IMG/VR virus record: IMGVR_UViG_3300027861_000010
Direction: 5' to 3' (one strand)
DNA: 64,000 nt
From: a virus
The first letter of the stretch is position 1, and every line of letters starts with the position of its first letter. The notes below the pieces were generated by a model, which saw nothing but the letters and a program-made list of their open reading frames with translations, did not search any database and was not told where the DNA came from. This document shows, in pieces, positions 11,745-57,196 of this stretch. The position numbers were made by a program, and so were the translations under genes.

Positions 11745-11758
11745 AAAATCCGGATTTT
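11745..11758. repeat. Dispersed 14-bp palindrome, perfect copy AAAATCCGGATTTT
   Basis: Perfect inverted repeat, intergenic, abutting the RBS of the next gene. Confidence 0.8.
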
Positions 11759-11769
11759 AGGAGACTCTC

Positions 11770-12168
11770 ATGGCGATGCTACTTGGTAATCAACACGGTG
11801 TGGTGTTCTTTGGACCATCAAAGAATCCAAAAGCGGTTCGTTGGTGGGCTGAACGAGGCCAGTTACACTGGGAAGACTCTCGGGATAATGGTTACGGCAC
11901 AGTAGGCATCAGAGAGTTTCTGCTTCGGCTTCAGGGGATCAACGACATGATCTCTAACGGCAAACGCAAGGACAATGAAGGGTTCATGCATGCCGATGAA
12001 ATCGAAAGACATCAACGGTTTATCGAGGAAGCCCTGGAACTGGTCAAAAAGGCCAAAGAACAGGGCGACCCCGATGACGTTCGCGTACGTAAACACAAGG
12101 CCCAAGATCGGCCTATGACTATGGTGATGCCCTCCAGTCTGTCGGCTGGCAAGGGTGTGGAATTTTAG
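11770..12168 (+). CDS. Hypothetical protein
   Basis: AGGAG RBS; 132-aa ORF. Confidence 0.6.
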   Translation: MAMLLGNQHGVVFFGPSKNPKAVRWWAERGQLHWEDSRDNGYGTVGIREFLLRLQGINDMISNGKRKDNEGFMHADEIERHQRFIEEALELVKKAKEQGDPDDVRVRKHKAQDRPMTMVMPSSLSAGKGVEF

Positions 12169-12178
12169 GAGAGCAGGG

Positions 12179-12565: not shown

Positions 12566-12574
12566 GGAAAAGGC

Positions 12575-13854: not shown

Positions 13855-16800
13855 ATGGAACCGCTCACGCCAAATCTGCTTGAGCCTTCGACTCCATCTT
13901 TGCTGTCCTCGGCTCCTATCTCTCCACCAAGTCCTCTGCCTGCTCAGCAGCCAGAGGATGATTTTCGTGAATTCGGTGATACCGACAAGACGCGGTCGAG
14001 CATTTACCAACGAGTGCTCCAGGCGGCTCAGTCAATTGAGCCAATTACCAATGAGCGTCACACTCTGCGATTGACCGGGGTCGACTATCAAGACCCCGAT
14101 CGCGTCAGTAAGCGAGATCAGAAAGCCGCTATCCTGGGCGGGTTAAGTCGAGGCCGGAGGCTCCGAGGAACTTGGGAGCTGATGGATAACGCCACAGGTC
14201 AGGTGCTGGATCAGAAGAAGTCCGTATTGATGACCGTGCCTCACATGACGGAACGAGGTACCTTTATCAACAAAGGGACTGAGTACACGTTGAAGAACCA
14301 GCAACGATTGCTTCCAGGAGTGTATACGCGAGTCCGTGACAACGGTGAGATTGAGTCCCACGCCAATATCATGCCCGGCAAGGGAGTTTCGCACCGTTAT
14401 TTCCTTGACCCAGAGAAGGGTGTATTCAAGATCCGATTGGGTCAAGGCACCGTCGGACTAATGCCACTGCTCAAGGCAATGGGAGCTAAACCGGGGCAGC
14501 TTAAAGAAGCCTGGGGCCGGGACCTTTTTGCGTCAAACTACAACGCAGACGACGCCACAGAGTATAAGAAACTCAAGCAGAAGTTTCTTACAAAGAAGGA
14601 ACTCGAAGGCGAAGAGAACGAACAACGGGAAGCGTTGGTCAACAAGTTTGCCAGCATGGAGATGGATCCGCAGGTCACCAGCCGGACGCTGGGCAAGCCT
14701 CATCAAGGGCTGACACTGGACGCTGTCCTGGATATTACGAAGAAGTTGGTTGCGGTCTCTAAGAATGAGGCCGAGCCAGATGATCGAGACTCACTGACGT
14801 TCCAACAGTTTGTCGGGCCGGAAGATTTGTTCGCTGAGCGAATCAAGCGGGACAAGGGTGGCCTGCGTCGAAATCTGTTGTGGAAGATGTCTGGTAAAGG
14901 CAATCTAAAAGGGATGCCGTCCTCGGCTCTCAATAAACAACTGATGGCCGCGTTGATGACTTCAGGTCTGGGTCAGGCGATCGAAGAGATCAATCCTGCT
15001 GAACTTTATGACAAGTCGACGGCAGTTAGTCGTTTAGGGGAGGGCGGCATTCCTTCAACAGATGCGATCCCGAAAGAAGCTCGGAGTGTCCAACCAAGCA
15101 TGCTGGGCTACATCGACCCAGTGCGAACGCCAGAGTCCGGCAAGGTGGGTGTAGACACTTACTTGGCTCGAGGTGCTCGTAAGGGAAAGGACGGAAAACT
15201 CTACTCACAGTTCCGCGACGTAAAGACAGGGAAACTGCTTTACAAGTCGCCGCAGGATGTGGCGGATATGACCATTGCCTTCCCAGGCAGTATGGATCAA
15301 CGCAGCAAACGAGTTGCAGCCATGCGTAACGGGAAGATGACGTACGTGCCGAAGGATGAAGTTGATCTGGTGTTGCCTTCAATGGAGGAGGCATTTAATC
15401 CGTTGTCCAACATCATTCCTATGAAGAGTCAGGTGAAAGGGCAACGGTTGGTGATGGCGTCTCGAATGACGACGCAAGCCTTGCCGATCGTGGACGCCGA
15501 AGCTCCGTTGGTACAGTCAGCAATTCCGGACACAGATGGCAACCAAAGTTACGAAGAACTGTACTCAAACAATATGGGAGCGTTGCGGGCTCCCCAGGGT
15601 GGTGTTGTCAAAAGTGTTGATGACGACGGGATCACAGTTCGATACGAAGACGGCACCGAGGAAACTCACGATCTGTATCAGAACTTCCCGTTCAACCGAA
15701 AGACGTTCATTCACCAAACTGCAAACGTAAAGCCCGGTGATCAGTTTAAGCCAGATCAGTTGCTGGCCTATTCCAATTACACAGACAAAGGTGGAGCAAC
15801 AGCTCTCGGTAGGAACGCCAGAACCGCTTACATTGCCTGGCAGGGAAAGAACTTTGAAGACGCTGTGGTTGTCTCAGAAAGCTTTGCTCGGAAAATGTCT
15901 TCTGAGCACATGTATCAACACGACTTGGAGGTCGATGATAAGACGAAGGTTGGAAAGAAGCAGTTCATCCAACAGTTCCCAGGTAAGTTCGACAAAGCGA
16001 CACTCGCTAAGCTCGACGAGAACGGAGTCATCAAACCTGGAACTGTCGTGAACTATGGTGATCCTTTGATTCTCGGGGTTACACAGCGAGAAGCGGCCCA
16101 CAACAAGGTTCACAAGAAAGGTCAATCGGGGTTTAACGATGCAACAGTCACTTGGAATCATCACGACGCTGGCACCATTACCGATGTGGTTATGGGCAAA
16201 AAAGGGCCGACTGTCGTTGTTAAAGCATCCTCCCCAACCCAGACCGGCGACAAGCTATCAGGCCGTTACGGTGACAAAGGAGTCATTGCTGACATCATCC
16301 CAGACGGTGAAATGCCGCATAACGGTGATGGTCAGCCCTTTGAAGTGTTACTCAATCCGCTCGGAGTAATCACTCGAACCAATCCGGCTCAGATGGCTGA
16401 GTTACTTCTTGGCAAGATTGCGGCCAAACGCGGCAAGCCGATCAAAGTGCAGGACTTTGACTCCCAGAAGGACATGGCTGCCTGGGTCATGGAGGAACTG
16501 GGCCGGGAAGGCCTATCCGATCTCGAAGATGTCCTCGATCCGTCCAAGGATCAGAAGGTCAAAGGAATCGCTACGGGCAACCGGTTCTTTATGAAGCTGC
16601 ACCACACAGCTGAGTCCAAGGGACAAAGCCGCGGCGGCGGGTCTTACACGATGGAGGACACACCGGCTAAGGGAGGGTCAGAGGGTTCCAAGCGTGTCGG
16701 CATGTTGGATACCAACGCACTGTTGTCTCACGGAGCTACGGCGACTCTGCAAGACGTCAGCTCTGTACGTGGACAGAAGAATGACGAGTACTGGATGCAG

Positions 16801-18309
16801 TTCATGGCCGGGTACAACCCGAAGGCTGCGAAAGTTCCGTTGGTGTACCGGAAGTTTGTCGATCAGTTGAGGGCCGCAGGTGTCAATGTGACCAAACAGG
16901 GTACCCAGACCAACATCATGGCCCTGACGGACAAAGATATCGACGAAATGGCTGGAGATCGTAAGCTGACCTCCGCCGAAGGTGTTGATTGGGGTGAGTC
17001 TCTTAAGGAGATTCCAGGTGGTTTGTTCGATAAGGCCAAGACTGGAGGTCATGGCGGCAACAAATGGTCGTACATGCAGCTGCATGAGCCCTTGCCTAAC
17101 CCTGTAATGGAGGAACCGCTTCGGCGACTCCTCGGACTCACGAAAAAGGACTTCAATGCCGTCATTTCAGGCGAAAAGCCGTTGGGATCGCACGGAGCAG
17201 GTCCTGGAGCCCTGAAAAAGGCTCTGGAGTCGATGAATGTTGATGCAGAGATCAAGAAAACCCGAAATATCATCCAAGCTGGGCGAGCATCGGAGCGGGA
17301 TGCCGCAGTAAAGAAGCTGGGCTACCTAAAATCAGCCAAAAAGCTCGGATTGAAGCCTGAAGACTATGTTTTGAGTAAAGTTCCTGTCCTGCCGCCGATG
17401 TTTCGGCCTGTCAGCATGATGAGCAACGATATGCCGCTCATCAATGACGCGAACTTTCTTTACAAAGAGCTTTTCGAGGCTAATTCCAACCTGAAAGCAA
17501 TACAGAAGGAGCTCGGCAACGACGCGTCGGGGCAAGAGCGACTCGCAACGTACAATGCCTTCAAGGCAGTGACAGGTTTGGGCGATCCGATCCATCAGAA
17601 GACCCGAGACAAGAACGTCAAAGGTATTTTGAAGACAGTGTTCGGCTCGAGCCCCAAGTTTGGCACGCTGCAACGTAAATTGATCTCCACAACGGTCGAT
17701 AATGTCGGTCGAGCGGTGATCACACCAAATCCTGATCTCGATATGGATTCTGTTGGCCTGCCAGAGGACAAAGCGTTCAAGGCGTACGACAAGTTCATCA
17801 CCAGGCGACTGGTGCGACAAGGAATGTCACTTCGAGCAGCTCGTAACGAAGTTGCAAATAAATCGAAGCTGGCTCGGAAACTTCTGTTGGAGGAAATGGA
17901 TGAACGACCGGTCTATATCAGTCGGGCTCCAGTTCTTCACAAGTTCGGTATCATGGCTATGAAGCCTCGATTAACCAAAGGTAGCACCTTGCAGGTGAGC
18001 CCTTTGATTGTGAAAGGTTTCAACGCTGACTTCGACGGCGATGCCATGAATTACAACGTCCCAAGTACGGAGAAGGCTCGTAAGGAAGCGATCGAGCGAC
18101 TTTTGCCTTCCCGTAACTTGTTCAGTCTGTCAGACTTCAAGTCTGTGATGCATGCTCCAGCTAACGAGTATGTTGGTGGTTTGTTTCATGCAACGAAGTC
18201 AAAAAGTGACCGTCCCAAGAAGATTTTCCGAACAGCCGCGGACGCGAGGAAAGCGTACGAGCGAGGTGATATCTCTATCGACGATCGCGTTCAAATCTTA
18301 GAATCGTAA
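13855..18309 (+). CDS. Phage multisubunit DNA-directed RNA polymerase: beta fused to N-terminal half of beta-prime
   Basis: beta motifs PHMTERGTFINKG, RTPESGKVG, NFEDAV, GDKLSGRYGDKGVI, LLNPLG, MKLHH; beta-prime motifs VPVLPPMFRP, GRAVITP, SRAPVLH, catalytic NADFDGD at 18022-18042. Confidence 0.95.
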   Translation: MEPLTPNLLEPSTPSLLSSAPISPPSPLPAQQPEDDFREFGDTDKTRSSIYQRVLQAAQSIEPITNERHTLRLTGVDYQDPDRVSKRDQKAAILGGLSRGRRLRGTWELMDNATGQVLDQKKSVLMTVPHMTERGTFINKGTEYTLKNQQRLLPGVYTRVRDNGEIESHANIMPGKGVSHRYFLDPEKGVFKIRLGQGTVGLMPLLKAMGAKPGQLKEAWGRDLFASNYNADDATEYKKLKQKFLTKKELEGEENEQREALVNKFASMEMDPQVTSRTLGKPHQGLTLDAVLDITKKLVAVSKNEAEPDDRDSLTFQQFVGPEDLFAERIKRDKGGLRRNLLWKMSGKGNLKGMPSSALNKQLMAALMTSGLGQAIEEINPAELYDKSTAVSRLGEGGIPSTDAIPKEARSVQPSMLGYIDPVRTPESGKVGVDTYLARGARKGKDGKLYSQFRDVKTGKLLYKSPQDVADMTIAFPGSMDQRSKRVAAMRNGKMTYVPKDEVDLVLPSMEEAFNPLSNIIPMKSQVKGQRLVMASRMTTQALPIVDAEAPLVQSAIPDTDGNQSYEELYSNNMGALRAPQGGVVKSVDDDGITVRYEDGTEETHDLYQNFPFNRKTFIHQTANVKPGDQFKPDQLLAYSNYTDKGGATALGRNARTAYIAWQGKNFEDAVVVSESFARKMSSEHMYQHDLEVDDKTKVGKKQFIQQFPGKFDKATLAKLDENGVIKPGTVVNYGDPLILGVTQREAAHNKVHKKGQSGFNDATVTWNHHDAGTITDVVMGKKGPTVVVKASSPTQTGDKLSGRYGDKGVIADIIPDGEMPHNGDGQPFEVLLNPLGVITRTNPAQMAELLLGKIAAKRGKPIKVQDFDSQKDMAAWVMEELGREGLSDLEDVLDPSKDQKVKGIATGNRFFMKLHHTAESKGQSRGGGSYTMEDTPAKGGSEGSKRVGMLDTNALLSHGATATLQDVSSVRGQKNDEYWMQFMAGYNPKAAKVPLVYRKFVDQLRAAGVNVTKQGTQTNIMALTDKDIDEMAGDRKLTSAEGVDWGESLKEIPGGLFDKAKTGGHGGNKWSYMQLHEPLPNPVMEEPLRRLLGLTKKDFNAVISGEKPLGSHGAGPGALKKALESMNVDAEIKKTRNIIQAGRASERDAAVKKLGYLKSAKKLGLKPEDYVLSKVPVLPPMFRPVSMMSNDMPLINDANFLYKELFEANSNLKAIQKELGNDASGQERLATYNAFKAVTGLGDPIHQKTRDKNVKGILKTVFGSSPKFGTLQRKLISTTVDNVGRAVITPNPDLDMDSVGLPEDKAFKAYDKFITRRLVRQGMSLRAARNEVANKSKLARKLLLEEMDERPVYISRAPVLHKFGIMAMKPRLTKGSTLQVSPLIVKGFNADFDGDAMNYNVPSTEKARKEAIERLLPSRNLFSLSDFKSVMHAPANEYVGGLFHATKSKSDRPKKIFRTAADARKAYERGDISIDDRVQILES

Positions 18310-18339
18310 CTGCTTGACGCAGATAAGGAGATCAAACAA

Positions 18340-19029
18340 ATGGGCATCAACCCAGAATTGCTGAAGCTGGCTCGCCATAATGTCGGTCAGCAAAAAGTTG
18401 CTTTCGTTCCCGCTGGTGATCCTACAATGGGTGGGGATCCTGCTGCTGGGGGTGCTCCAATGGACCCTGCCGCAGCTGGCGGTGCTCCGCCGATGGATCC
18501 AATGGCCGCAGGCGGAGCTCCACCGATGGACCCGGCTGCTGGCGGCGGTGATCCGCTTGCCGGACTTCAACCGATGATCCAACAAGCTGTTCAGCAGGCT
18601 ATGGCCGCTGGCGGCGGCGGTGGCGGCGGTGCTCCCGGCGAGGCAGCCATCAAGCCAAAGATCGACATCAACGTCGAAGTCATGCAGATGAAGAAACTGT
18701 TGGCCAAGCTGTGCGATGCGATGGGTGTTCAGATTCCAGCCGCTGAAATGGTTGCGACACCTGAAGACCTTAATCAAATGGCAGCAGGCGGTCCCGGGGC
18801 CGCGGCAGCCACTCCGGACGGCGGTGGCGGCATGCCTGGTGGAGATCCGGCAGCTGGCGGCGGAGCCATTCCGCCGATCGAACCGATGAAGGCTGCGGAA
18901 GACTGGGAAGCAGGCGTAGCGTTCACTCCGCCTGCGGCTTACGACTTCCAGAATTCACACTCGACCACAAAGAATACCGCTAACATGGCTGCGGCTATGC
19001 TCCTGCGGAATCGCACAAAGGTCTCTTAA
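18340..19029 (+). CDS. Gly/Pro/Met low-complexity protein with DPAA(A)GGAPPM repeats
   Basis: About four degenerate ~10-aa repeats at ~18430-18560; K-x-A sites KLAR, KVAF, KAAE. Confidence 0.65.
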   Translation: MGINPELLKLARHNVGQQKVAFVPAGDPTMGGDPAAGGAPMDPAAAGGAPPMDPMAAGGAPPMDPAAGGGDPLAGLQPMIQQAVQQAMAAGGGGGGGAPGEAAIKPKIDINVEVMQMKKLLAKLCDAMGVQIPAAEMVATPEDLNQMAAGGPGAAAATPDGGGGMPGGDPAAGGGAIPPIEPMKAAEDWEAGVAFTPPAAYDFQNSHSTTKNTANMAAAMLLRNRTKVS

Positions 19030-19256
19030 TGTTCATTGTTGAGATAGTTGAAGCCATCGGGAAGCCTCCATTACGTGTGGAGGCTTCCCAAGTTGTGGTC
19101 CGTATGCCTGACGGAACGCCCGTTAGTTTGGCCGCACTTTATGGAAGCTCCGAAAGTGTCCTGGTATCGCACTGTGAGGACGAGACTTTTAATGACAACC
19201 TCCGAAAACTAGGACTGAACGATACCGTAATCTCTGAAACCCTGAAGGTGAAATAA
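19029..19256 (+). CDS. Small hypothetical protein
   Basis: Stop/start overlap (TAATG) with upstream gene. Confidence 0.6.
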   Translation: MFIVEIVEAIGKPPLRVEASQVVVRMPDGTPVSLAALYGSSESVLVSHCEDETFNDNLRKLGLNDTVISETLKVK

Positions 19257-19257
19257 C

Positions 19258-19986
19258 ATGGCCGGACCACTCCGATCAGCTGACAAGGCGTACTACGCTT
19301 CAAAGCAACCCCTATTTCTTCGCGGCACTCGCGAAGGTCGAAAGAACCCTGCACCCAACCCGTCGTACAAGCAGAAAGCGAACGACGTGACCGCGTCGTC
19401 GAACAAGTATTACGCCGCAATGGAGCCAGTGGCTACTTCGGTTCAGCCTGCCGCAGGTCAGAAACTGCAGACGACGTTCGCTCCAGAAAAGGTCGCTACG
19501 CTTCAGGCAAAGGCACAGGTCTTGCCGGACGTAGTTGCTGCCTTTCAAGGTGGAGCCACAACCGTACGTATCGAAGGTGAGTCCGCAGACATCAACAAGT
19601 CACGAGCCGCGGTTGAAATGGCTGTTGGACGTAAGACGCTGACACGGGAGCAGTCTGACCGTGTTGTTTTTGTCCCGGTACAAAAGCCCGCCACTTCTAA
19701 CGAGGTGGAGGTAGTAAGTACCGAAGAAGCCCCAGCCGTTCCTGTTGAAGCGGAAGCCATTTTGAATCCACCTGCGGAAGTCACGAAAACGCCAAAGAAG
19801 AAGACGACACGTAAGAAGACGACCAGGAAGAAGAAGACCAACACTGCTGCGGATGTTCCTGCAAGTGTTCCTGCAGAAGTGCAGGAACCGGCAGCGGAAG
19901 ATGATTCAGTGACTGAAGCTGACATTGCAAGTGCATTCGGAGTCGCGGACGACTCGGATGATTTCGATGCTGACAGTGACGATTAA
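19258..19986 (+). CDS. Hypothetical protein with Lys/Thr-rich basic patch and acidic tail
   Basis: KKKTTRKKTTRKKK followed by a D/E-rich C-terminus. Confidence 0.65.
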   Translation: MAGPLRSADKAYYASKQPLFLRGTREGRKNPAPNPSYKQKANDVTASSNKYYAAMEPVATSVQPAAGQKLQTTFAPEKVATLQAKAQVLPDVVAAFQGGATTVRIEGESADINKSRAAVEMAVGRKTLTREQSDRVVFVPVQKPATSNEVEVVSTEEAPAVPVEAEAILNPPAEVTKTPKKKTTRKKTTRKKKTNTAADVPASVPAEVQEPAAEDDSVTEADIASAFGVADDSDDFDADSDD

Positions 19987-19998
19987 GTGAGTTTGTGA

Positions 19999-22900
19999 AT
20001 GCTCAACACTACAGTTGGACAACTGCTGGTCAACGAGGCCCTTCCTGACGAGCTTCGCGATTACAATCGCGTGCTCGACAATAAGGGTATGCATGCACTG
20101 CTCCAACAAGTGGCTCGAGAGCATCCAGACAAGTACCGTGAAGTTTCATTCAAGTTGAATCAGGTTGGTCAACGTTCCGCCCAAGACCAGGGCGGAATGT
20201 CGTTTAGTGCTCGACACCTGAAGCGTTCGCCGTATGCGAATGAAACTCGATCACGCATTCAGGCTCAACTGGGTAAGGTACTTGACGACGATTCCTTAAC
20301 TGACGAGCAGCGAGCGGCCAAAGTTGTTCGTATTGTTGGCAAAGAGATGGAACCTCAACAGAAGGCAATTCTGGAGGAGGCCATCAAAGACAAAAATCCC
20401 CTAGCGATGCAGGTGCTATCAGGTAGCCGCGGGAAGCCAATGAACTTGGCCAGCCTGTTGGGTGCTGACATGTTGTACTCAGATCATCGCGACGAGGTAA
20501 TTCCGATTCCGGTACTTCGCAGTTACAGCGAAGGGCTGACACCTGAAGAATACTGGGCCGGAACGTACGGAGCTCGTCGCGGCATTATCGCAACGAAGTT
20601 CGCCACTCAGGAAGCTGGTTTCTTATCTAAGCAGCTCAACCAGGCTGGACACCGGCTGGTGGTGATGGATGAAGAGGGCGAGGATGACGATCGCCGCGGT
20701 ATGGTTGTCGATACGGACGACATGGATAACGAAGGGTCATTACTGGCCCGCGACATGGGACCGTACAAGCGAAATACTCCGCTGACACCGAAGATTCTCA
20801 AGCACTTAAAGCGTCTCGGTAAAAACCGGATTTTAATCCGATCACCGCTGGTTGGCGGCTCGCCGGAAGGTGGAGTCTATGCTCGGGATGTCGGTATTCG
20901 AGAGACTGGTAAGTTGCCTGGCCGCGGCGAACAGGTCGGCTTGCAAGCAGCACAGGCATTAAGTGAACCGATCAGCCAAGGCCAATTGTCGGCTAAACAC
21001 TCGGGCGGCGTTGCTGGCCAAGAGAAAGCTGTCGGCGGTTTCCAGGCAATCAACCAGCTGATCCAGGTACCCAAGAAGATGCAAGGCGGAGCCGCTCACT
21101 CAGAAAAGGACGGCATCGTCCAACGAGTGGAGAAAGCTCCGGCTGGCGGACACTACGTCACGATCAACGATAAGCAACATTACGTTGGAGAAGGTTTTGA
21201 CGTCAAAGTCAAAAAGGGCGACGAAATCGAAGCGGGCGATCTGCTGAGTAACGGCATTCCTAATCCGGCCCTGATCGTGAAGTACAAGGGCGTAGGCGAA
21301 GGTCGTCGTTACTTTGTTAATGAGTTCCGCAAGGCGATGGCCGGAGGCGGAATGCAAGGGCATCGTCGTAACATCGAGCTGCTGGCTCGCGGACTCATCA
21401 ATCACGTCAAGATGACCGACGAGACTGACGAGCATGCTCCGGACGATATTATTCCTTACTCAACATTGGAGCACACCTATAAGCCGAGAGGAGACTCTCA
21501 GTTGTTGGCTCCAAAGAAAGCCGTCGGACAATACTTAGAGCGTCCGGTATTGCACTACACCATCGGCACCAAGATCCGCCCTTCGATGTTGAAAGACTTC
21601 GAGGAGTTCGGCATCACCGACTTGCCAGTCCATAAAGAACCACCTCCGTTCCAGCCGCACATGGTTCGAGGGATGTATACACTTCAACATGACCCAGACT
21701 GGATGACCCAGATGTACGGGTCTGGACTGAAGAAGAGTCTGTTGAATTCCACTGCTCGTGGTGCAACCAGCGATGCTCGAGGAACCAGTTTTGTTTCCAG
21801 TCTGGCTGAAGGCTCTGATTTCGGTGAGGTTGCAGATCGTGCTGTGATTCAGCCGAAGCCTTCGTACGAGTTGCCTAAGATTGAGCCACCTGCTCCTGAG
21901 GAAGAAAAGCTTCCGGCTCCTGCCGCTCCGCCTACACCGTCGTTCTTCGGTGGTCGGTTCAAGACTGGTATGCATAAACAGGCTGAGGAACCCAAAGTTC
22001 CGACAGCACCAAAAACGCCAGCAACGCAATCGCTTGCTGCACCATTGGCACCGACACCTGCTCCGACTGGGGCAGGTAATATGTCGTCGAATATCATGCC
22101 TTCGTCAGGACCTACAGCTCAGGATTTCATGCCAGCACCGGGTCAGTTGGGTTCACAAGAGAATCCCAACGGCATTATGCCTCCGGATCAGTTGCAGCAG
22201 TATGCTCAGAATGCTCAACAGCAGAATGACCGCGGGATGCGGATGGTGGGTGTAGACCCGATGTCTGATCCGTTCAGAACGCAGACAACTGCGGCAACGC
22301 CTCCGCCGTCAACTCCAGCTCAAGCCCGAGCCGACCAGGTACAGCAACAACGTAGCTACGGTAGTGGCAACACTCAAACGGATATGCGGACTTTGTTCGC
22401 TCAGGCACCTTCGAGAACCTTAGCTGGTAACTCCCTGGCACGGAAGATGCGTCGAGGGGATGCTCGTACAATGGGGATCCAGGCAGCTCGACAACGTGCT
22501 CAACAGATACAGAACGAGCAAGCTGCTCGCCGGAATCTGTACCAACAGGCCCACCCACAGCGAGCTTATGACCCTATACCGGGGCCGTCAGTCGCGGGAC
22601 CATTACCTGCAGAGCAGTCACAAAGTCCCGTACCGGCAACTGGCGAGATGGGTTATGGTGACGTGGCTGGCACTTTACTTGCCGGACAACATGCCTGGAC
22701 GCAAGGCGGTAGAGTTTGGAATGCGGCGGCTAAAGGTGAAATGCTTACGCACGGTTCACAGCTAGGCAAGTCACTCAATCCTGGAGCACAGAAAGGCGTT
22801 CAGACGGTAAATCAGTTGGCCCGTACCGCAGCACACAAGACCCCAGGACTCGGACGCTTTGTTGCTGCCACAAGTGATGATGCCGCCCGGGCTGCTGGAG

Positions 22901-23886
22901 CAAGCAGCAAAGGACTCTCAAAGGCCCTTGGTCCTGCTGCTTTTGTGTTGGAAGGTGGGCTTATCGGGAAAGACATTTACGATAAGACACAAGAAGGGCA
23001 ATCGTTTGGTCGGGCCTGGAAAGAGCAGGCGGATGAGCACGGAGCTAATACTCGAGGCCTGTTTACTGACTGGGATGGCGGTGCTCACGAGATATATCAG
23101 AAACCTATTGATGTGGCGATGCATGTGCTGAGCCCGGTAGCTACTGTGCAGGAAGGAACACAATTGGCCGCCGAAGTCGGCGGCGGTCTCGGAGATATGG
23201 CCACAGGTGCGTGGAACTTCGCGTCGGATGCTGAGGGACGTAACCGGGCAGCAGCAAAAGCCGAAACCGAACAAATGATGGCTGATCGCCAGGAGGCTCT
23301 ATCAGGAGAGCAGGACCAGATCCGGTCAACGCTGGAAAATAATAAAACAATCTCGCCGATGCAGAAAGAAGAGTTACGCCAACGCTCTGCCGAGTTAGAC
23401 TTACGGAAGCAGGAAGCCCAGTTGAAAGCTGACGCGGCCACGGACGAAACAGAAGGCTGGCAGCTCGGTAAGCAACACACATTTGGTACTGGTGGACATT
23501 ACTTTCGTGACGCAATGGCCGGGACAGGGAACCGGCTTTCAGCGAAAATCGAAAAATTACAGGCTAACCAGGATAGTCTGACACCAGAACAACAGTTCGA
23601 TTTGAAGAATATGATTCGCAGGCGTGACGAGATGAAGAGGCTGGGAGACTTTTACAGTCGCGAAGTTGGCTATTTTGGTGAAGGAGATTTCACTAAAATT
23701 ATGCGAATCCGTGTGCGAAACATAAAAGTCCAGTCAGTGGAACTCGCCCGGCGACTACGCGAGCCTGCTGTAAAAGGGAACCCTCAGCTTACAATGGAGT
23801 TGGAAGCTGAGATGCGACATCAACAAACCCGCCTTGCAAACATGAAAAGCTGGGCTAGACAGGCCAAGAATCAGAAGGTCAAGTAG
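19999..23886 (+). CDS. RNA polymerase beta-prime C-terminal subunit with ~630-aa appended domain
   Basis: TTVGQLL, SGSRG, bridge helix GLTPEEYWAGTYGARRG..T..GFL, trigger loop GLQAAQALSEP..SAKHSGG; similarity ends near aa 610; K660-Q-A precedes an unrelated extension. Confidence 0.9.
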   Translation: MLNTTVGQLLVNEALPDELRDYNRVLDNKGMHALLQQVAREHPDKYREVSFKLNQVGQRSAQDQGGMSFSARHLKRSPYANETRSRIQAQLGKVLDDDSLTDEQRAAKVVRIVGKEMEPQQKAILEEAIKDKNPLAMQVLSGSRGKPMNLASLLGADMLYSDHRDEVIPIPVLRSYSEGLTPEEYWAGTYGARRGIIATKFATQEAGFLSKQLNQAGHRLVVMDEEGEDDDRRGMVVDTDDMDNEGSLLARDMGPYKRNTPLTPKILKHLKRLGKNRILIRSPLVGGSPEGGVYARDVGIRETGKLPGRGEQVGLQAAQALSEPISQGQLSAKHSGGVAGQEKAVGGFQAINQLIQVPKKMQGGAAHSEKDGIVQRVEKAPAGGHYVTINDKQHYVGEGFDVKVKKGDEIEAGDLLSNGIPNPALIVKYKGVGEGRRYFVNEFRKAMAGGGMQGHRRNIELLARGLINHVKMTDETDEHAPDDIIPYSTLEHTYKPRGDSQLLAPKKAVGQYLERPVLHYTIGTKIRPSMLKDFEEFGITDLPVHKEPPPFQPHMVRGMYTLQHDPDWMTQMYGSGLKKSLLNSTARGATSDARGTSFVSSLAEGSDFGEVADRAVIQPKPSYELPKIEPPAPEEEKLPAPAAPPTPSFFGGRFKTGMHKQAEEPKVPTAPKTPATQSLAAPLAPTPAPTGAGNMSSNIMPSSGPTAQDFMPAPGQLGSQENPNGIMPPDQLQQYAQNAQQQNDRGMRMVGVDPMSDPFRTQTTAATPPPSTPAQARADQVQQQRSYGSGNTQTDMRTLFAQAPSRTLAGNSLARKMRRGDARTMGIQAARQRAQQIQNEQAARRNLYQQAHPQRAYDPIPGPSVAGPLPAEQSQSPVPATGEMGYGDVAGTLLAGQHAWTQGGRVWNAAAKGEMLTHGSQLGKSLNPGAQKGVQTVNQLARTAAHKTPGLGRFVAATSDDAARAAGASSKGLSKALGPAAFVLEGGLIGKDIYDKTQEGQSFGRAWKEQADEHGANTRGLFTDWDGGAHEIYQKPIDVAMHVLSPVATVQEGTQLAAEVGGGLGDMATGAWNFASDAEGRNRAAAKAETEQMMADRQEALSGEQDQIRSTLENNKTISPMQKEELRQRSAELDLRKQEAQLKADAATDETEGWQLGKQHTFGTGGHYFRDAMAGTGNRLSAKIEKLQANQDSLTPEQQFDLKNMIRRRDEMKRLGDFYSREVGYFGEGDFTKIMRIRVRNIKVQSVELARRLREPAVKGNPQLTMELEAEMRHQQTRLANMKSWARQAKNQKVK
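20821..20834. repeat. Palindrome copy AAAAACCGGATTTT (1 mismatch)
   Basis: Inside the beta-prime C gene; flanked by T and A. Confidence 0.6.
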
Positions 23887-24246: not shown

Positions 24247-26772
24247 ATGGAAGGAACCATGCATACTTCAATTATTACAAAATCTGCCAACCTTGGCGGC
24301 AGTGGTGGCGAGACGGAATTTGAACAAGCATTTTCCAGCCTCGCATACGCTTACCTGCGGGACAAAGCTCCTCGATTGCTCGACCACATGGTCGGCTTTC
24401 AGCTTGTCGACCGCAACGAAGACAACACCAAAGCCATGGGGATCTTCGGATTCCAGATCGATAAGCAGTGGCTTTATGCTCCCGTCTTCTTCCTGAACGG
24501 TGACCTCAAGGGTCATGAGTTGTTGTACATGAAGAACAACGACTCCTTCGTTCCGATGAAGGAGAACTGGATCAACTACATCATGAGCCGCAAGCCTCAT
24601 GTATTGGGCGAGTCCTCTTCAGATCAACTGCGGGATCTTGGAGGCATCTACCCTGATATCCGGTCGCTTTCGATACCGCCTTCGGTTGGCGGCGGTAAGC
24701 GAGCATCGGATCAGGAGTGGCTGAAAGACGCTATGCCGATGCTGGCTGCGTTCAAAGTCAAAGCTGCCAGCTCGCTTTTCCCTGGAGCTGGAAACCGCAA
24801 ACTTAACCAGGCAGCTGTCGTCGAAGCTCCGCTTACTGCGGCATTGACCAAGCACGCTCAAAATCTGGATTTTAACCAGATCATGCCGACCAGCTTGGAA
24901 TTGATGAAGCAGGCACACGACATCGCTGAGATGTATCCGACCATTAAGCAGGCGATGCAGAAGTTCTACGGCGTCGATTGTTTCAGCCGATGGGGCCGAG
25001 AGTATCGCGATAACACGGCCAAAGAGGCTGGCAACATCATGCCAGAGAAGCGGGCTGCCGCTCGGCCATACATGCCTGGCAATTTGCTGATTCCTACGGA
25101 GCGACCGGCTGGTCCCGTCGACCACGAAAAATCCGGCAAGCTCCGGATGTATGTTTACGAAGAAGTCATTGTCAGCAAGGCTCCGGAGTTGGACGAGGAC
25201 GAGCGTGAGCGTCTACAGAAAGACACCGTCCTGATTAAGGATCACCGCGAAGGGGAAGAAGTCAGCAAGGCCTACAATACTCAGGTCGAAGCCAAACTGA
25301 CGAATCCCTCAGAGACCGCCCTCTACCGTGTGTTGGTTAAGCCGGGCGAGTTCAAAAAGATGCTGATCGCCATGAACGGCTCCAGCAATCGAGGTCGTGA
25401 AGCCATGGCGACAGTTGTCCGCCTGGAAGATAACGGCGACGGATCGAACAAGGCCTGGTTGAATACGCACCCGACCAATGTTTTCGCTGATCAGATCAGT
25501 GAACGTGATGAGTGGGAAGAGTGGTTCAACGGATTGGGCGATTCAAGTTCGCTGACTGAAGGTGCTGAGTACATCGCAGTCGCAGAGAACGGTTCAACCT
25601 CGGTGCCATTTACCGTGCAGTCCAGTTACGGCGATGATCGTTATCGTGTTGATTTCCGTACCGACATTAACTGGAACGAGACTCGACCAGCCACGATGCC
25701 TCGTGTTGCTGCTAACCGTTTCGATCAGTACGGTGACGACCAGGACCGGGCTCCGTCGCCGTACGGGGCAATGCTTTACATCAACAAGGAAGGCAAGAAG
25801 GGCACCAAGATTCGAGCGATCGGTGGCGAACTTCGCATTCCAGAGGACTTCAAGTTCCTTAAACTCAAAAGCCCACAGAAGTCGAAACCTGGCGAGCTCA
25901 TGTGTTGTAGCGATTACGAGACTCGTAGCGACATGCCGCCTATCAATCTCGGAAAGATCGACGACATCCAGTTGCTCTTCCACGAGAAGACAGCTCGATT
26001 GAAGGTTTTCAACAACGGCACTGACGTGTATATCTCGTCGCCGTTGGGTGAGCAGTGTCTATCTAAGAAGTCTGCTCTACTGAACCTGGTCGGTACGCAT
26101 GGCTTTCGTGAAAAGGTTGCCCGGGAGATTCTGACTTACGCCGAACAGAAAGGTAACGCGGTTTACCGTGCGTCTTATGCTCCCGGCTATGGGCCTGAAA
26201 AACAAGCTGCTCCGAACAGAAGTATGCTGGCTGGCGGGCCAAGTGCTCCGATGTACGATGACTTTGCCAACGAGCAGAGTGTGGAAGAATACGGTCCTCG
26301 AACGGCTGTACCAACTCAGTACGGTAGCGAGCAGGCTTACCGTGTCGACAGCATGACAGCAGATCAGACCGATCCGGCAGTATGGGACAATTGGCAGAAC
26401 TATTCTGCTGAGGATTTCCAAAGCAGCATGCAGGTTGCTCAGCAGGCCGGTGCCGAAGGTCAGAAAGAGGTTTTCGACACTTCGATGATCTCTGGAATGC
26501 TCAAGTCCGTTCGACAGGATTCGCTTGTTGAGCGACATCTTGGTAGTCTGGTCGAAGCGTTGGACGCTCTTGGGCGTTTGATCATGAACTTCTACTGGCA
26601 CCAGGAGGAGTTTGAAGATCGTTACGGTAAGAGCGATTTACCTGAACTGGAAGACAGCTTGCGGAATGCATTCGAGTCCCTGGGTGACATCACTCTGTTC
26701 CTCAAAGAGAAAACTATCGAATCGCCGTTCGACGAAGGCGATGTCGATCTCGAAGAAACTGCAAGGAATTAA
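24247..26772 (+). CDS. Large putative virion head-associated protein with many K-x-A sites
   Basis: KSAN, KRAS, KHAQ, KRAA, KTAR, KQAA; globular-looking N-domain (PVFFLNGDLKG) and helical C-domain. Confidence 0.6.
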   Translation: MEGTMHTSIITKSANLGGSGGETEFEQAFSSLAYAYLRDKAPRLLDHMVGFQLVDRNEDNTKAMGIFGFQIDKQWLYAPVFFLNGDLKGHELLYMKNNDSFVPMKENWINYIMSRKPHVLGESSSDQLRDLGGIYPDIRSLSIPPSVGGGKRASDQEWLKDAMPMLAAFKVKAASSLFPGAGNRKLNQAAVVEAPLTAALTKHAQNLDFNQIMPTSLELMKQAHDIAEMYPTIKQAMQKFYGVDCFSRWGREYRDNTAKEAGNIMPEKRAAARPYMPGNLLIPTERPAGPVDHEKSGKLRMYVYEEVIVSKAPELDEDERERLQKDTVLIKDHREGEEVSKAYNTQVEAKLTNPSETALYRVLVKPGEFKKMLIAMNGSSNRGREAMATVVRLEDNGDGSNKAWLNTHPTNVFADQISERDEWEEWFNGLGDSSSLTEGAEYIAVAENGSTSVPFTVQSSYGDDRYRVDFRTDINWNETRPATMPRVAANRFDQYGDDQDRAPSPYGAMLYINKEGKKGTKIRAIGGELRIPEDFKFLKLKSPQKSKPGELMCCSDYETRSDMPPINLGKIDDIQLLFHEKTARLKVFNNGTDVYISSPLGEQCLSKKSALLNLVGTHGFREKVAREILTYAEQKGNAVYRASYAPGYGPEKQAAPNRSMLAGGPSAPMYDDFANEQSVEEYGPRTAVPTQYGSEQAYRVDSMTADQTDPAVWDNWQNYSAEDFQSSMQVAQQAGAEGQKEVFDTSMISGMLKSVRQDSLVERHLGSLVEALDALGRLIMNFYWHQEEFEDRYGKSDLPELEDSLRNAFESLGDITLFLKEKTIESPFDEGDVDLEETARN
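24860..24873. repeat. Palindrome copy AAAATCTGGATTTT (1 mismatch)
   Basis: Reverse complement of the 36347 copy; 18 of 19 bp shared including flanks. Confidence 0.7.
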
Positions 26773-36326: not shown

Positions 36327-36346
36327 CCGCTCACTTGCTGGAGGTT

Positions 36347-36360: not shown

Positions 36361-36373
36361 GGAGAAATACGCT

Positions 36374-53344: not shown

Positions 53345-53369
53345 CCAGGCAACACGAATCTGGCGATTC

Positions 53370-53383
53370 AAATTCCGGATTTT
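53370..53383. repeat. Palindrome copy AAATTCCGGATTTT (1 mismatch)
   Basis: Intergenic, between tube stop codon and terminator. Confidence 0.75.
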
Positions 53384-53387
53384 AACG

Positions 53388-53424
53388 AGGCTGGCCTGGC
53401 CCTACGCCGGGCCAGCCTTTTTTT
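53388..53424 (+). terminator. Intrinsic terminator after tube gene
   Basis: 13-bp stem AGGCTGGCCTGGC/GCCGGGCCAGCCT plus T run. Confidence 0.85.
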
Positions 53425-53462
53425 GGGTCTTGAACCCCTAAACGCACCGTAAGGTGAGATAC

Positions 53463-56249
53463 ATGCCAGTGAACCACGGTGCAAGCACCGATAGTAGGCC
53501 CGCGGTCTACAATGAAAAATCGACAGGAGTTTCTCCGAGCGATCAAGGACCTTTATCGGACCTGCAGACGCAACAGGAAGCTCAGCCGGTACTCGCACAG
53601 CAGAATGCTGGCGACCAGGCCAGTGATACGCACCACACGGCAGCTAATCAAGCCAATTCGCTTCAAGCCGACACTCCAATCCGAATGGGACGTGTCCTTC
53701 TCGCTCTCCCGTATGTCCACTGCTACAAGGTCCAACTGAGCGGACGCCAGGGAACTTGCATTGCCTCAGCCACGGCCCGCGAATCTCACATGCCGTTGGG
53801 CGTCAAAGCTGGCGAGGTCATTCCGCCGAACTCAACGGTTCTGGTTTGGAAGCCAAACACCGGGACGTTGTCCTACATCCTCGCGGTGATTCCAACTCCG
53901 ACGATGCATGATGACTTCAACGCGTCGGACCATCTCCAGCAAGGCGGCAACTCCGGCCCGAAGAAGGTAGAAGCCTACCGCAATATCGTTAAATCCACCA
54001 AGAATGCTCATGGTTGGGTGCCTCAATCATCAGGACGCCCAATGGATGGGCTCATTGGTGAATACTCTCGCATGTCAGAAACAGGCATTGGCCTGCTGAT
54101 CGACTCATTCCAAGCTTATCTTCGCGTCAATGAAGTCTGTGGTCTCTGGCTCAACTACTTCGATAACTACGCCAAGCTGGCTGCCCTCTCGTTGCAGGTG
54201 ATGTCGTATTGCGAACACAACATGCAGATGTACGACGAGGGTGAGCTGTTCTCGATGAAAGGTTACGCCACGTACCCCTGGGAAGCCACCGGGATGTACA
54301 GCGATGGCGAGAAGTTCTCCAAGACCAACGGAGCTGAAGAGGTCCAACTGGATAAGCAGTTTCCTTTTGCTCTTGAAGACATCGAAGATCACGCCCAAAC
54401 GCCGGTTTATCGGCTGACGGAATATACTGGTTACCTTGGGCAGGGCTTCAATCGCACGCTGATGAAGCCAGCCAAGGAGTCCGGCAAGCGGCTGCTTACG
54501 GACGAAGACAAAGATGTCGGGCTATTCCAGGAGTTGCTGGCCTTGGACGGCGGATATTCAATTCGCTCCGCCAAGCAGGTCACGATTGCCAAGTATCCTC
54601 TGATTCCAAACCCGCGACGAAAGCGGCAGGTTGAGGACGCTAAAGGCGACGACCTGACCGAAGAGAATGATTATCGTTTCAGCGGCAAGTTCGGCGGCGG
54701 CGATCAGCACAAAGTCAAAGAGTGGCAAGATGGTGACGTCTCTGAGTTGAAGAACCTGATGCGTCCGTCCGGCGTGCAGGATCTAATGGCTCACCATTAC
54801 AACTGGAAGTCAACGCACCCATTCGAGTACCACACGAAAGATTACGAGTACCCTGAGGAGGACGAGGGAAAACTTAGTTCGGTCAAGTTCTATCGTGGCA
54901 ACTTCGGACAATCCTACGTCGAAGTCGGCCCCGAGAGTCAACTAAAGATCGACGACAGGTACGACAACGTCAACTACTACAACACTGCTTCGTTCTTTTC
55001 GCTCACGGAAGACGGCAGTGTCGTCATTGGCGACGGGTACGGGTCTCAGATCACCATGACGGGCGGGCAAATTCGGCTCGAGGCCGGTGGTGACGTGATG
55101 TTGATGTCCGGTTCCCGGGTAGTGGCTCTAGGTAAAGAAGCTCTTGTTCGGGCCAAAGGTAGTGTCGACATTTCTTCCAGCGACAAAGATGTCCGCATCA
55201 AAGCTGAGAAGAACTTACAGATGCTGGGAGCCAACAGCGGCAGCGGCGGAGTGCTTATCGAGTCGAAAGGGAAAGGTACATCCCAGGATTACGATCAAAA
55301 GATCGGTGAAGAAGTTAATGCGTCCGGCATCGTGTTACTGTCCCGCGGCGGCAGCGTTAGCACTATGACCAAGACCATCTATCTTCGCAGTGGTGTAGAT
55401 GAAGGTAATGCCGAATCTACAGGAAATATCATCGTTGACTGTGCCAATGGTCGATCGAACCTGGTGTCGTACGCCAACGCCCACGCATTTTTCAATAGGC
55501 AAGGGCTGGGTATTTGGCACCAACCGCAGGGCCAAGACGACATCAACATCGACAAGTCGCACTTCTTCGGGCCATCGTTTGCCAAGATCAACGGACCTAC
55601 GGTGATGTCGAAGGACGTGGTAATCTGCGAGAGGGGAAGTCTTGGTGTTGATCGTAACATCTTTGCCAAGGGAAACATATTCGCCTTGAAGTCGATGGCC
55701 TGTAAGGACGGCTCGGTTGGAGACAGTTCAACAAATAACATTCCAGAAGACGTTAACAACTTCATTGATGAATCATGCAAATTCGCTGAAGGTGTTACTG
55801 AGTTTGGCTTGCCGTTCTTTGAGCATTACACGAGCTTCATTTGGATAGACAAGCAACCAGGCAATACCGATTTGTTGAACGACCACATAGGATTCTCCTA
55901 CCGGGATAAAAGTTCGGAGGGGGATACGGTGTATGACTACCAGTCGGAGAAGTTCTTTTTACTCGAAACTCGATGGCAACAGCTCGGACGTACGGGATTG
56001 GTATCAGGTGGGGGAGAAACTTGGACCGAGAAACCAGTAGAATACCAAGGCAACGAACTGTATCCCTGGCCTGGCAAGAAAAACTGGGTCGACCGGGATG
56101 CGTTGCTTCAGTATGAGAATCAAGGAGGATTTCTGTTGTTTGACACAGGCGGTTTCGCCAAAAGTCGTGAGGATACTCGCGAAGATTACGAAGAACCAAA
56201 GTTCAGTGACTGGAAGAAAGATCCATGTGACTCAACTTACAAGCTGTAA
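53463..56249 (+). CDS. Baseplate central spike (gp5/VgrG-like OB-fold plus beta-helix)
   Basis: GRVLLALP..CYKVQL OB-like start; SFFSLTEDGSVVIGDGYGSQITMTGGQIRLEAGGDVML beta-helix repeats. Confidence 0.6.
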   Translation: MPVNHGASTDSRPAVYNEKSTGVSPSDQGPLSDLQTQQEAQPVLAQQNAGDQASDTHHTAANQANSLQADTPIRMGRVLLALPYVHCYKVQLSGRQGTCIASATARESHMPLGVKAGEVIPPNSTVLVWKPNTGTLSYILAVIPTPTMHDDFNASDHLQQGGNSGPKKVEAYRNIVKSTKNAHGWVPQSSGRPMDGLIGEYSRMSETGIGLLIDSFQAYLRVNEVCGLWLNYFDNYAKLAALSLQVMSYCEHNMQMYDEGELFSMKGYATYPWEATGMYSDGEKFSKTNGAEEVQLDKQFPFALEDIEDHAQTPVYRLTEYTGYLGQGFNRTLMKPAKESGKRLLTDEDKDVGLFQELLALDGGYSIRSAKQVTIAKYPLIPNPRRKRQVEDAKGDDLTEENDYRFSGKFGGGDQHKVKEWQDGDVSELKNLMRPSGVQDLMAHHYNWKSTHPFEYHTKDYEYPEEDEGKLSSVKFYRGNFGQSYVEVGPESQLKIDDRYDNVNYYNTASFFSLTEDGSVVIGDGYGSQITMTGGQIRLEAGGDVMLMSGSRVVALGKEALVRAKGSVDISSSDKDVRIKAEKNLQMLGANSGSGGVLIESKGKGTSQDYDQKIGEEVNASGIVLLSRGGSVSTMTKTIYLRSGVDEGNAESTGNIIVDCANGRSNLVSYANAHAFFNRQGLGIWHQPQGQDDINIDKSHFFGPSFAKINGPTVMSKDVVICERGSLGVDRNIFAKGNIFALKSMACKDGSVGDSSTNNIPEDVNNFIDESCKFAEGVTEFGLPFFEHYTSFIWIDKQPGNTDLLNDHIGFSYRDKSSEGDTVYDYQSEKFFLLETRWQQLGRTGLVSGGGETWTEKPVEYQGNELYPWPGKKNWVDRDALLQYENQGGFLLFDTGGFAKSREDTREDYEEPKFSDWKKDPCDSTYKL

Positions 56250-56257
56250 GGAACCTT

Positions 56258-57196
56258 ATGATTGATCCAAACAAGATGTCCGATGAAGAGCGGAAAGTCT
56301 TGGAGGAAGTTGCCAAGGCCAAAGGTCAGACGCTTGAAGAGGCGTTGATTGACCTCGGTCATGCTATTACTCCTGCCCAAGACGAAACCGTTTCTCTCGA
56401 AGGACAATCTCAACCGGAGCCATTGGCCGCTCCTGTCATGGTTGAAGAGCCGATCGCTGTTGTCGAAGCTGATAACGCGGTAGCGGACAAGGACCTGACA
56501 ATTGAAGTGACTCCCGACGTCGATCCGCCCATGCCTCCAGCGGCAGAGGATGATGAACCGGAAGTAGAAGAGGAAGCTGAGGAGCCAGAAGATGAAGGCT
56601 TCGGCACCATCAAGCAGGTCTGCGTGCAGTGCGGTTGGGACCAGGATGAGCCTACGATTCCTGAACCAGAGCACAAAGATAAGATCGGTTTTCTGCAGTC
56701 TGTGTTAGGGCACAAGGTCTTCAGCAAGCGTTACTCTATGTTCGGTGGTAACCTTCGTGTTACCTTCCGATCCCTGACTGTTCGGGAAATCGACACGCTT
56801 TATCAGGAAGCTTTCCGAGCTCAAAAGGAAGGTCTGATTGCAACACCTGCCGACTATTACGAATACCTGAACCGGTTGCGGCTGTATCTGCAGATTCAGG
56901 GTTTCTCTGCTCAGTCGACGTCGCTTCACATTAAGTTGCCGGATGGGTTGTCGGAAGATACGCATCAAGGTGCGGCTTCTTACTGGGAACCGTTTCTGCA
57001 GAAAGCCAGCAAACTAAAAGAGGACGTACCGCTTATTAAACAAATTGAGGACTACGTGGTTGAGGAAGTCCTCAAGACTGAACATTTACAGCGAACCATC
57101 ACCCACGAATGCTCGAAGTTCAACAAGCTCGTAGCAAAATTGGAGGCCGCAGTAGACAATCCGGATTTTTGGAAAGAGACCGAGCAGCCGTCTTGA
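56258..57196 (+). CDS. Tail assembly chaperone (G-like)
   Basis: Upstream of tape measure; acidic N-region, CxxC, VTFRSLTVRE; ends just after a candidate slippery site. Confidence 0.6.
   Translation: MIDPNKMSDEERKVLEEVAKAKGQTLEEALIDLGHAITPAQDETVSLEGQSQPEPLAAPVMVEEPIAVVEADNAVADKDLTIEVTPDVDPPMPPAAEDDEPEVEEEAEEPEDEGFGTIKQVCVQCGWDQDEPTIPEPEHKDKIGFLQSVLGHKVFSKRYSMFGGNLRVTFRSLTVREIDTLYQEAFRAQKEGLIATPADYYEYLNRLRLYLQIQGFSAQSTSLHIKLPDGLSEDTHQGAASYWEPFLQKASKLKEDVPLIKQIEDYVVEEVLKTEHLQRTITHECSKFNKLVAKLEAAVDNPDFWKETEQPS
57156..57169 (+). promoter_or_regulatory. Palindrome copy ACAATCCGGATTTT that also contains candidate -1 slippery heptamer G_GAT_TTT (57163-57169)
   Basis: Codons CCG GAT TTT in the chaperone frame; the -1 frame is open to 57702. 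Confidence 0.6.

Follow-up and report, generated by a model that had tools for sequence, protein, structure and literature searches.

Our study showed that a 20-bp palindrome, TTTAAAWTCCGGAWTTTAAA, recurs along the 64,000-nucleotide stretch of the IMG/VR virus record IMGVR_UViG_3300027861_000010 (hereafter the window) and along the genomes of its relatives. That this motif is real and selected we regard as practically certain, and its sites very probably act as double-stranded DNA recognition sites for a symmetric protein. Their role may be the genome-wide control of gene expression, a proposal that we favour only tentatively. The window is part of an uncultured phage genome of about 170–205 kb, and its site counts and gene content refer to those 64 kb; nearly all of its called genes (calls were made with a simple in-house caller) lie on the plus strand. 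Relatives were found through the genes of a phage-encoded RNA polymerase:

13855–23886, plus strand: phage multisubunit RNA polymerase (Pfam), comprising a beta + beta'-N fusion at 13855–18309 and beta'-C at 19999–23886.

The closer relatives in IMG/VR are 157–205 kb long with polymerase identities of 83–40%, and the polymerase tree (G005,(G003,((WIN, G006, G004, G001 unresolved),(G007,(G002,G008))))), in which WIN is the window, gives their branching; being related, the genomes compared here are not independent samples.

The preliminary description of this DNA had listed a 14-bp palindrome at six positions, all of which were recovered, the copy at 11745 being perfect and those at 20821, 24860, 36347, 53370 and 57156 having one mismatch each. 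It had named two findings that would undo the claim, namely a frequency explained by a Markov background and a lack of conservation in related phages. Dinucleotide-preserving shuffles held 0.03 matches on average, with 0 of 100 reaching six, and relatives keep the motif, with matches in 19 of the 23 related records (control counts 0–1). Its caveat that the motif had been defined after being seen is answered by independent genomes, each relative carrying 20–34 sites as against 0–1 for a control pattern. Allowing two mismatches adds a core match at 4427. When all matches in the window, G004 and G002 with up to two mismatches are aligned, the flanks of the 14-mer prove to be conserved as well, with T,T before it and A,A after it; because these flanks are symmetric, down to their minor bases (T35/C14 versus A35/G14), the motif is a 20-bp dyad. 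Scores from the symmetrised 20-bp matrix are bimodally distributed, the window sites lying at 22.7–28.5, and the matrix finds 6 sites in the window, 34 in G004, 31 in G002 and 23 in G007, compared with about 0–1 in shuffles. G015 has 18 sites in 78 kb, and no site of this type (type A) was found by the matrix in G005. From the original list of six copies the matrix kept five, left the one at 57156 in doubt and brought in a site at 4424:

4424–4443, unstranded: motif site, core 4427–4440 with two mismatches, inside a SET-domain gene at 4220–4687 (Pfam); score 23.8.
11742–11761, unstranded: motif site, perfect 14-mer at 11745–11758, intergenic, 7 nt past the stop codon at 11734.
20818–20837, unstranded: motif site inside the beta'-C gene 19999–23886, phase 0, encoding GKNRILI.
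24857–24876, unstranded: motif site inside an 841-aa gene at 24247–26772, phase 1; score 26.1.
36344–36363, unstranded: motif site, intergenic, 17 nt past the stop codon at 36326, abutting the GGAG of gene 36374–36772.
53367–53386, unstranded: motif site, intergenic, after the stop codon at 53344 and directly before an intrinsic terminator; score 28.5, the window maximum.
53387–53424, plus strand: intrinsic-terminator-like hairpin with a G+C-rich 14-bp stem followed by seven T, conserved in G004 and G002.
57156–57169, unstranded: doubtful copy with one core mismatch and non-matching flanks, inside gene 56258–57196; score 5.3, below the threshold of 9.

The contexts first described for the six copies also hold: two abut a ribosome-binding site (RBS), one precedes a terminator and three (20821, 24860 and 57156) lie inside open reading frames (ORFs). 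Avoidance of a restriction site was rejected as the origin of the pattern, TCCGGA (23 copies) and CCGG (288 copies) not being rare in the window. The motif is not itself an intrinsic terminator, having no G+C stem and a T-run that belongs to the palindrome.

The way in which the sites depart from perfect symmetry indicates what may recognise them. Positions 4 and 11 of the motif do not covary, and mismatched pairs are in excess (AA 38 and TT 33, versus AT 32 and TA 9). The AA and TT forms are the two orientations of a single asymmetric site, and they occur 38 versus 33 times on the coding strand; RBS-adjacent sites likewise occur in both orientations. Because there is no pairing covariation and the orientations are equally used, the data point to two independently recognised half-sites and a dimeric protein; for the same reasons an RNA or DNA hairpin is ruled out and an oriented promoter disfavoured. 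Among the possibilities raised in the preliminary description, the dimeric protein site is thus the one that gained support, from a dyad symmetry that extends into the flanks, from the orientation counts and from retention at synonymous positions (see below). An operator or a genome-organising site stays plausible in this framework; the other three specific options fared poorly. The virion-polymerase promoters of N4 are stable hairpins, with stems of 5–7 bp and 3-nt loops, that extrude from supercoiled DNA and so keep their stem positions complementary. Hairpins extruded from packaged DNA in this way do not suit a motif that lacks covariation and whose stem has A-T pairs only, around CCGG. An oriented promoter for the phage polymerase is a misfit with orientation-independent sites, some of them followed by terminators, and with minus-strand gene starts that have no site. 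Like parS-type sites, which are palindromes of 14–16 bp, the motif occurs in several dispersed copies, some of them intragenic, but a six-frame search with Pfam ParB_N found no ParB N-domain partner in G001–G005, and ParB was dropped as a candidate binder; the control search was positive in 10 of 14 known genomes. As a separate observation, type A sites that combine two different half-sites (AAAATCC with AAATTCC) exceed what independence would give (71 versus about 54 expected, n=112).

The same evidence bears on a possible function at the RNA level, in which the transcribed motif would form a hairpin, terminate transcription, be processed or offer a CsrA-type GGA site beside the RBS. The motif does contain GGA, and two window copies and about half of the relatives' intergenic copies lie directly 5' of a Shine-Dalgarno sequence. 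Yet mismatches prevail where base pairs should covary, any stem would contain A-U pairs alone and enclose a 4-nt loop, the asymmetric variants occur in both orientations on the coding strand, and several sites beside an RBS, among them window 36347, are CCAGA variants that have lost GGA from the mRNA strand, all of which make a function in RNA extremely improbable.

Selection on the DNA is seen in where the sites lie. As in dispersed sets of operators, there are 20–34 sites per genome, and they favour intergenic DNA: 35 of 92 sites (38%) are intergenic, compared with 4–11% of the DNA (p about 1e-15). All three intergenic window sites occupy the same gene junctions in G004 and G002. The site at 11742 abuts the AGGAG of gene 11770–12168 and has counterparts at 79839 in G004 and 108083 in G002, and the junction of the 36344 site carries one at 103730 and 132303, respectively; the 14-mers at 11745 and 36347 end at AGGAG and GGAG, 11–13 nt ahead of the ATG codons at 11770 and 36374. 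The arrangement at 53367 is repeated at 126762 in G004 and 140396 in G002, and G001 has a degenerate copy at the orthologous junction. The 76 nt that follow the 53367 site, beginning with the hairpin, have a predicted RNA fold of -39.2 kcal/mol. More generally, in short gene junctions the 20-mer ends 7–16 nt ahead of the start codon, touching or overlapping the Shine-Dalgarno sequence, and any slack (0–19 nt) is on the upstream side. Where the intergenic region is long, the site is found at one edge or the other, and several sites follow a stop codon and precede an intrinsic terminator, an order found at window 53367 and its orthologues and at 186374 in G004. In G004 we also noted a site, at 41086, that is followed 11 nt on by AGGAG and then by the ATG of an uncalled small hydrophobic ORF (41106–41250).

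Sites inside genes, too, are found again at orthologous codons, in proteins that share just 34–71% identity. The 4424 site is found at orthologous codons in G002 (score 26.0) and G004 (16.3), where the proteins are 50–59% identical, and the 24857 site at 92287 in G004 and 120856 in G002 (58–71%), with third-codon positions identical in 7 of 7 cases versus 18–29 of 60 in the flanks. The 20818 site is retained in G004 (88981) and L001, and is not present in G002 and G001, which encode a similar peptide with different DNA. A comparison of synonymous sites had been proposed as a check; across shared sites third-codon identity is 86% (63/73) versus 40% (262/659) in 90-nt flanks, a contrast that illustrates constraint and does not test it, the sites having been chosen because they are shared. 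The test of constraint is that positions orthologous to sites are themselves sites far above the chance rate of about zero. Lineage-specific sites arose by substitution in ungapped alignments. Insertion of a mobile element was rejected, as site-less orthologues align without gaps and differ by substitutions, and so was a coding repeat or peptide motif, as the intragenic sites are spread over all three phases and their peptides differ.

The sites are also spaced more evenly than random, with coefficients of variation (CV) of 0.61 in G004, 0.62 in G002 and 0.53 in G007 (P about 0.002 each); in these three genomes no gap is shorter than 1 kb and many are 5–6 kb. In the explanation that we favour, a phage-carried, sequence-specific dimeric protein would bind each site on double-stranded DNA through the half-site TTTAAAWTCC, the two halves meeting at the central CG. 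Selection would maintain about one site per 5–6 kb of this unidirectionally read genome, preferring gene junctions, where the site usually abuts the next Shine-Dalgarno sequence, and otherwise preserving sites inside genes by means of synonymous or conservative codons. Such sites would serve as expression control points for the whole genome, that is, as a global set of operators or roadblocks and not as promoters, much like mycobacteriophage stoperators, the inverted repeats of phiC31 or the KorB operators of RK2 (see below). This role is favoured by the placement at gene junctions, the fixed abutment on the RBS and a spacing of roughly one operon. Several findings weigh against it: about 60% of the sites are deep inside genes, they are never clustered like classical operators, several are directly followed by a terminator, and no other promoter motif was found in the phage DNA, which leaves room for reading the sites as promoters.

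As promoters, or promoter cores, the sites would be used by the phage multisubunit RNA polymerase through a dimeric specificity factor, with transcription starting inside the motif and leaving a 15–20 nt leader. A genome of about 190 kb that is read in one direction, has its own polymerase and has close relatives (G001–G004) in which sigma-70 region 2 was not detected would suit such a system. Sigma-70-like promoters are not enriched (12 found versus 11.6 expected), no other upstream motif was found, and a de novo search for a second motif returned only RBS-like words, coding repeats and pentapeptide-repeat genes. As with the promoters of T7-group phages, a single conserved motif with a narrow range of scores and with variants between lineages is distributed between and within the genes of a one-direction genome at about one-operon spacing, and half of the intergenic sites abut an RBS. 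T7-type promoters, however, lack symmetry and share one direction, whereas the phage sites have complete dyad symmetry. Promoters of the T7/SP6 and phiKZ/AR9 kinds are asymmetric motifs in a fixed orientation, and here the asymmetric variants face both ways, even beside RBSs (type A 38 versus 33; type B, described below, 7 versus 5). Moreover, a strong terminator comes straight after several of the sites, in an order that three phages have kept; neither of the two large conserved minus-strand genes is preceded by a site, and many sites are far from any gene start. Taken with the points in its favour, these observations make the promoter explanation unlikely.

Known dispersed sites share some of these features with the phage motif. 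Stoperators, which are thought to gate transcription, are asymmetric 13-bp sequences oriented with transcription and bound by a known immunity repressor. In phage D29 they form operator-like elements dispersed throughout the genome (PMC12266134). The phage motif resembles the stoperators of cluster A mycobacteriophages (L5 gp71; lytic D29) in that dozens of short operator-like copies are spread genome-wide, mostly in short intergenic gaps and with some in genes; unlike them it is a 20-bp dyad without orientation bias, in a phage that looks lytic and has its own polymerase. The KorB operators (OB) of the IncP plasmid RK2 are 13-bp palindromes, about 12 copies in 60 kb or roughly one per 5 kb, recognised by a dimeric global regulator, and the likeness extends to their presence on a mobile element with some copies adjacent to promoters and some far from them. 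In contrast to KorB, which belongs to the ParB family, no ParB N-domain was found in the five related phage genomes, and the sequences are unrelated. Phage phiC31, a temperate 41-kb Streptomyces phage, has conserved inverted repeats (CIRs) of 17 bp that are bound by the phage repressor at many dispersed and mostly intergenic places, and these resemble the motif as dispersed inverted repeats of a phage; to our knowledge neither intragenic conservation nor even spacing has been described for CIRs, a difference from our motif.

The motif has changed between phage lineages. G001 has a type B variant, TAAWW-CCGC-WWTTA, that was revealed by the weak matrix matches of this genome and is present there in 12 exact copies, with 0 in seven other genomes; on the coding strand its centre reads CCGC seven times and GCGG five times. 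Type B also occurs in G229 (5 copies) and G230 (4), neither of which has type A sites. Such lineage-bound variants speak for a specificity that has evolved together with its putative binder. The more distant G003, a 56%-identity relative, has a palindrome of its own, TAAGYRCTTA, in 20 exact copies compared with at most 1 elsewhere. Nine of the 20 are intergenic, often just before an RBS (for example at 45043, 107349, 107773 and 123284, in reversed coordinates), and their spacing is irregular (CV 1.1). A dispersed palindrome of this kind was not found in G005.

Outside the phages, a scan for the exact 18-mer in one genome per prokaryote species (185,579 species) gave 71 matches, 14 of them in Planctomycetota and 8 in a single assembly. 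That assembly, the Planctomycetota metagenome-assembled genome (MAG) CAVXOB01 (G024), has 35 type A sites and 0 matches to the control pattern, and its sites are confined to four islands of about 100–130 kb:

C2:806–932 kb, island of G024.
C2:1457–1582 kb, island of G024.
C11:1646–1729 kb, island of G024.
C11:3144–3246 kb, island of G024.

The island that we examined has tyrosine integrases at its borders, carries restriction and defence genes, and shares only four proteins with G004, two of which are an adjacent pair of 264 and 177 aa. Its sites are irregularly spaced and occupy long intergenic regions, some of them between convergent genes; they cluster tightly only at C2 825.7–829.6 kb, where they flank the gene for the 264-aa protein, which is Rep-like (see below). 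Two of the islands, both bounded by tyrosine integrases, are partly inverted copies of each other, and the 20-mer in the islands sits in a repeated unit of about 80–100 bp with the inverted repeats GGCAGA ... TCTGCC.

The Planctomycetota matches raise the question of a host protein. The sites could be bound by a nucleoid-associated or regulatory protein of the host, probably a planctomycete, in which case phages and islands would both have adopted a host signal. Planctomycetota assemblies account for more than their share of the exact 18-mer matches (14/71), and variants differ between phage lineages, perhaps along with different hosts. In G024, on the other hand, the sites are restricted to the islands and are not chromosome-wide, the other Planctomycetota matches are single copies or binned phage contigs, and no other genome among the 185,579 species has multiple exact copies, so that a host factor appears very unlikely. 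As for the hosts themselves, the bin of the Gemmataceae MAG G027 holds contigs of the window's phage family (C20, C47, C76 and C132), with a polymerase 71% identical and motif sites present. These contigs, together with homologues of the Rep-like gene in the cultured Planctomycetota Allorhodopirellula and Rosistilla, hint that the hosts of the phage group are probably Planctomycetota.

The pair of genes shared between the island and G004 supplies a possible binder:

G004 804–1598: Rep/IS91-like zinc protein of 264 aa, adjacent to the gene for a 177-aa neighbour.

The 264-aa protein has an N-terminal Cys-rich zinc module (C...CPxC..RR type) of Rep_1/IS91-type proteins, in which C81, C95, C101, C104 and R107 are invariant among six sequences in a C...CPWC..RR arrangement. 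It has a single invariant His (GPH), and no HUH triplet is present among the invariant columns. The best matches of its predicted fold (mean predicted local distance difference test score, pLDDT, 78.6) are HUH Rep endonuclease and origin-binding domains, with Z scores of 6.9–5.2, and in the protein atlas Rep_1 and Zn_Tnp_IS91 are the named clusters closest to it. No sequence match was found in Pfam or the PDB, a profile search against solved structures gave nothing below E 0.6, and Foldseek gave nothing at E <=0.001. Type A or type B sites accompany the Rep-like gene in all 12 IMG/VR contigs that encode it, both gene and sites are missing from G003 and G005, and within the order of G024 the gene occurs in 1 of 201 genomes. 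The 264-aa protein, which would then act without an evident HUH centre, is our best candidate for the binder, put forward with considerable reserve. The fold matches are mixed with other ferredoxin-like folds and their Z scores, below 8, are under the level of true relatives; the atlas scores of 0.93–0.94 are leads only. The co-occurrence of gene and motif among the phages partly follows phylogeny and may reflect shared ancestry, the G024 island counting as one independent case. Within G024 the gene is found in only two of the four islands, both on contig C2, and a fetched C11 island with 7 sites gave no Rep-like match; nor was the gene seen within the 64 kb of the window, which is part of its genome. 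All of these points weigh against this candidate. For the 177-aa partner the structure model (pLDDT 46.7) is unusable and the protein atlas gave no match.

Another possible binder is encoded in the window itself:

824–1108, plus strand: stand-alone GerE/LuxR-type helix-turn-helix (HTH) gene (Pfam GerE, 5e-15, 55 bits).

Dimers of the GerE/LuxR family typically bind 18–20 bp palindromes, and in a first comparison the gene was found in motif-bearing genomes (the window, G006, G004, G002 and G008) and was absent from G001, G003 and G005. That the sites are operators of this protein is nevertheless highly improbable: G007, in which another gene takes the slot, keeps 23 sites, G001 lacks the gene and has type B, and no close homologue is encoded in the motif-rich islands, the single match lying elsewhere on the chromosome. 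Three further candidates were set aside. A phylogenetic profile of 17 genes shared by G004 and G002 and missing from G001 failed in its premise, G001 having type B sites; a PD-(D/E)XK/RusA-like gene next to the best site is absent from G001 and G003, and no other link to the motif was found for it; and a tubulin link was rejected, as G001 has type B without a tubulin gene and G003 has a tubulin gene without types A or B. The tubulin/FtsZ-like gene itself (G004 38725–40002; G002 69587–70882; also in G003) is 84% identical between G004 and G002, occurs in 19 IMG/VR contigs, is absent from G001 and G005, and is preceded by an uncharacterised 192-aa protein.

If the binder is Rep-like, the sites may be its landing pads in DNA metabolism, where they would serve in replication initiation, nicking or DNA organisation and where position along the DNA, and not relation to genes, would matter. 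Rep, E1 and T-antigen origin-binding domains, the nearest folds to the 264-aa protein, bind palindromes as dimers. The even spacing with no two sites less than 1 kb apart, the indifference to orientation, the many conserved sites deep in long genes, and the presence of both motif and Rep-like gene in a non-phage island, with sites in long and even convergent intergenic regions, would all be expected of such a system. Nicking is doubtful, however, for a protein without an evident HUH or catalytic Tyr motif, we know of no precedent for thirty origins in one phage genome, the spacing in the island is irregular, and the tight abutment on Shine-Dalgarno sequences in short junctions is left unexplained. 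On balance we consider a role in DNA metabolism fairly unlikely. The island arrangement is also reminiscent of repetitive extragenic palindromes (REPs) and their REP-associated tyrosine transposases (RAYTs), of the HUH superfamily, in that a dispersed short palindrome accompanies an HUH-superfamily-like gene flanked by copies, a resemblance limited to the Planctomycetota island. REPs lie outside genes, fold into hairpins and multiply by copying, whereas 60% of the sites in the phages are within genes, where they originated in point changes with no insertion, and the pairing positions do not covary. The protein, too, differs from RAYTs in resembling Rep_1/IS91 and not the IS200-type Y1 enzymes, and in showing no HUH motif.

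A broader and rather doubtful possibility is that a Rep/IS91-like protein without an HUH nuclease centre and an 18–20 bp palindrome together make up a portable genome-marking module, common to large RNA-polymerase-encoding phages and to integrative islands of Planctomycetota, with a specificity that drifted from CCGG to CCGC. The element would retain a site every few kilobases, even by synonymous selection within essential genes. If true, the module would represent a novel kind of control or replication system, acting element-wide and derived from the rolling-circle initiator fold; and if the binder is indeed the Rep/IS91-like zinc protein, that fold would have been reused as a genome-wide DNA-binding factor in viruses and chromosomal islands. 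Whatever the protein, the palindrome is the only strong regulatory-type signal found in the DNA of this uncultured group of RNA-polymerase-encoding phages of about 170–205 kb. For experiments it offers a 20-bp probe, a few candidate binders and, in types A and B, naturally occurring variants of specificity. Its conservation at synonymous sites matters for the annotation or recoding of such genomes.

No near DNA match to the window was found among named phages. The nearest of these by polymerase protein, at about 31% identity, are Salmonella phage Arash and Vibrio phages D181, D148 and D69. In the Arash virion both polymerase subunits are among the most abundant proteins (PMC10585845). The window also encodes a sulfotransferase-like gene (34–813), the SET-domain gene mentioned above (4220–4687) and an ATP-cone class II ribonucleotide reductase (7737–10031, Pfam). 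Downstream of the terminator at 53387, the leader of a 931-aa gene (53463–56249), at window 53425–53462, holds about 25 nt, CCAAACGCACC.TAAGGTGAGATA, that hardly differ between the window, G004, G002 and G001 though the proteins are only 52–68% identical, which suggests a conserved translation-control or RNA element. In G001, two genes at 168.1–169.1 kb and 197.7–197.9 kb consist of long pentapeptide-repeat runs with a 15-nt period and a GGCCAACCTT core, and these dominate the k-mer statistics of that genome.

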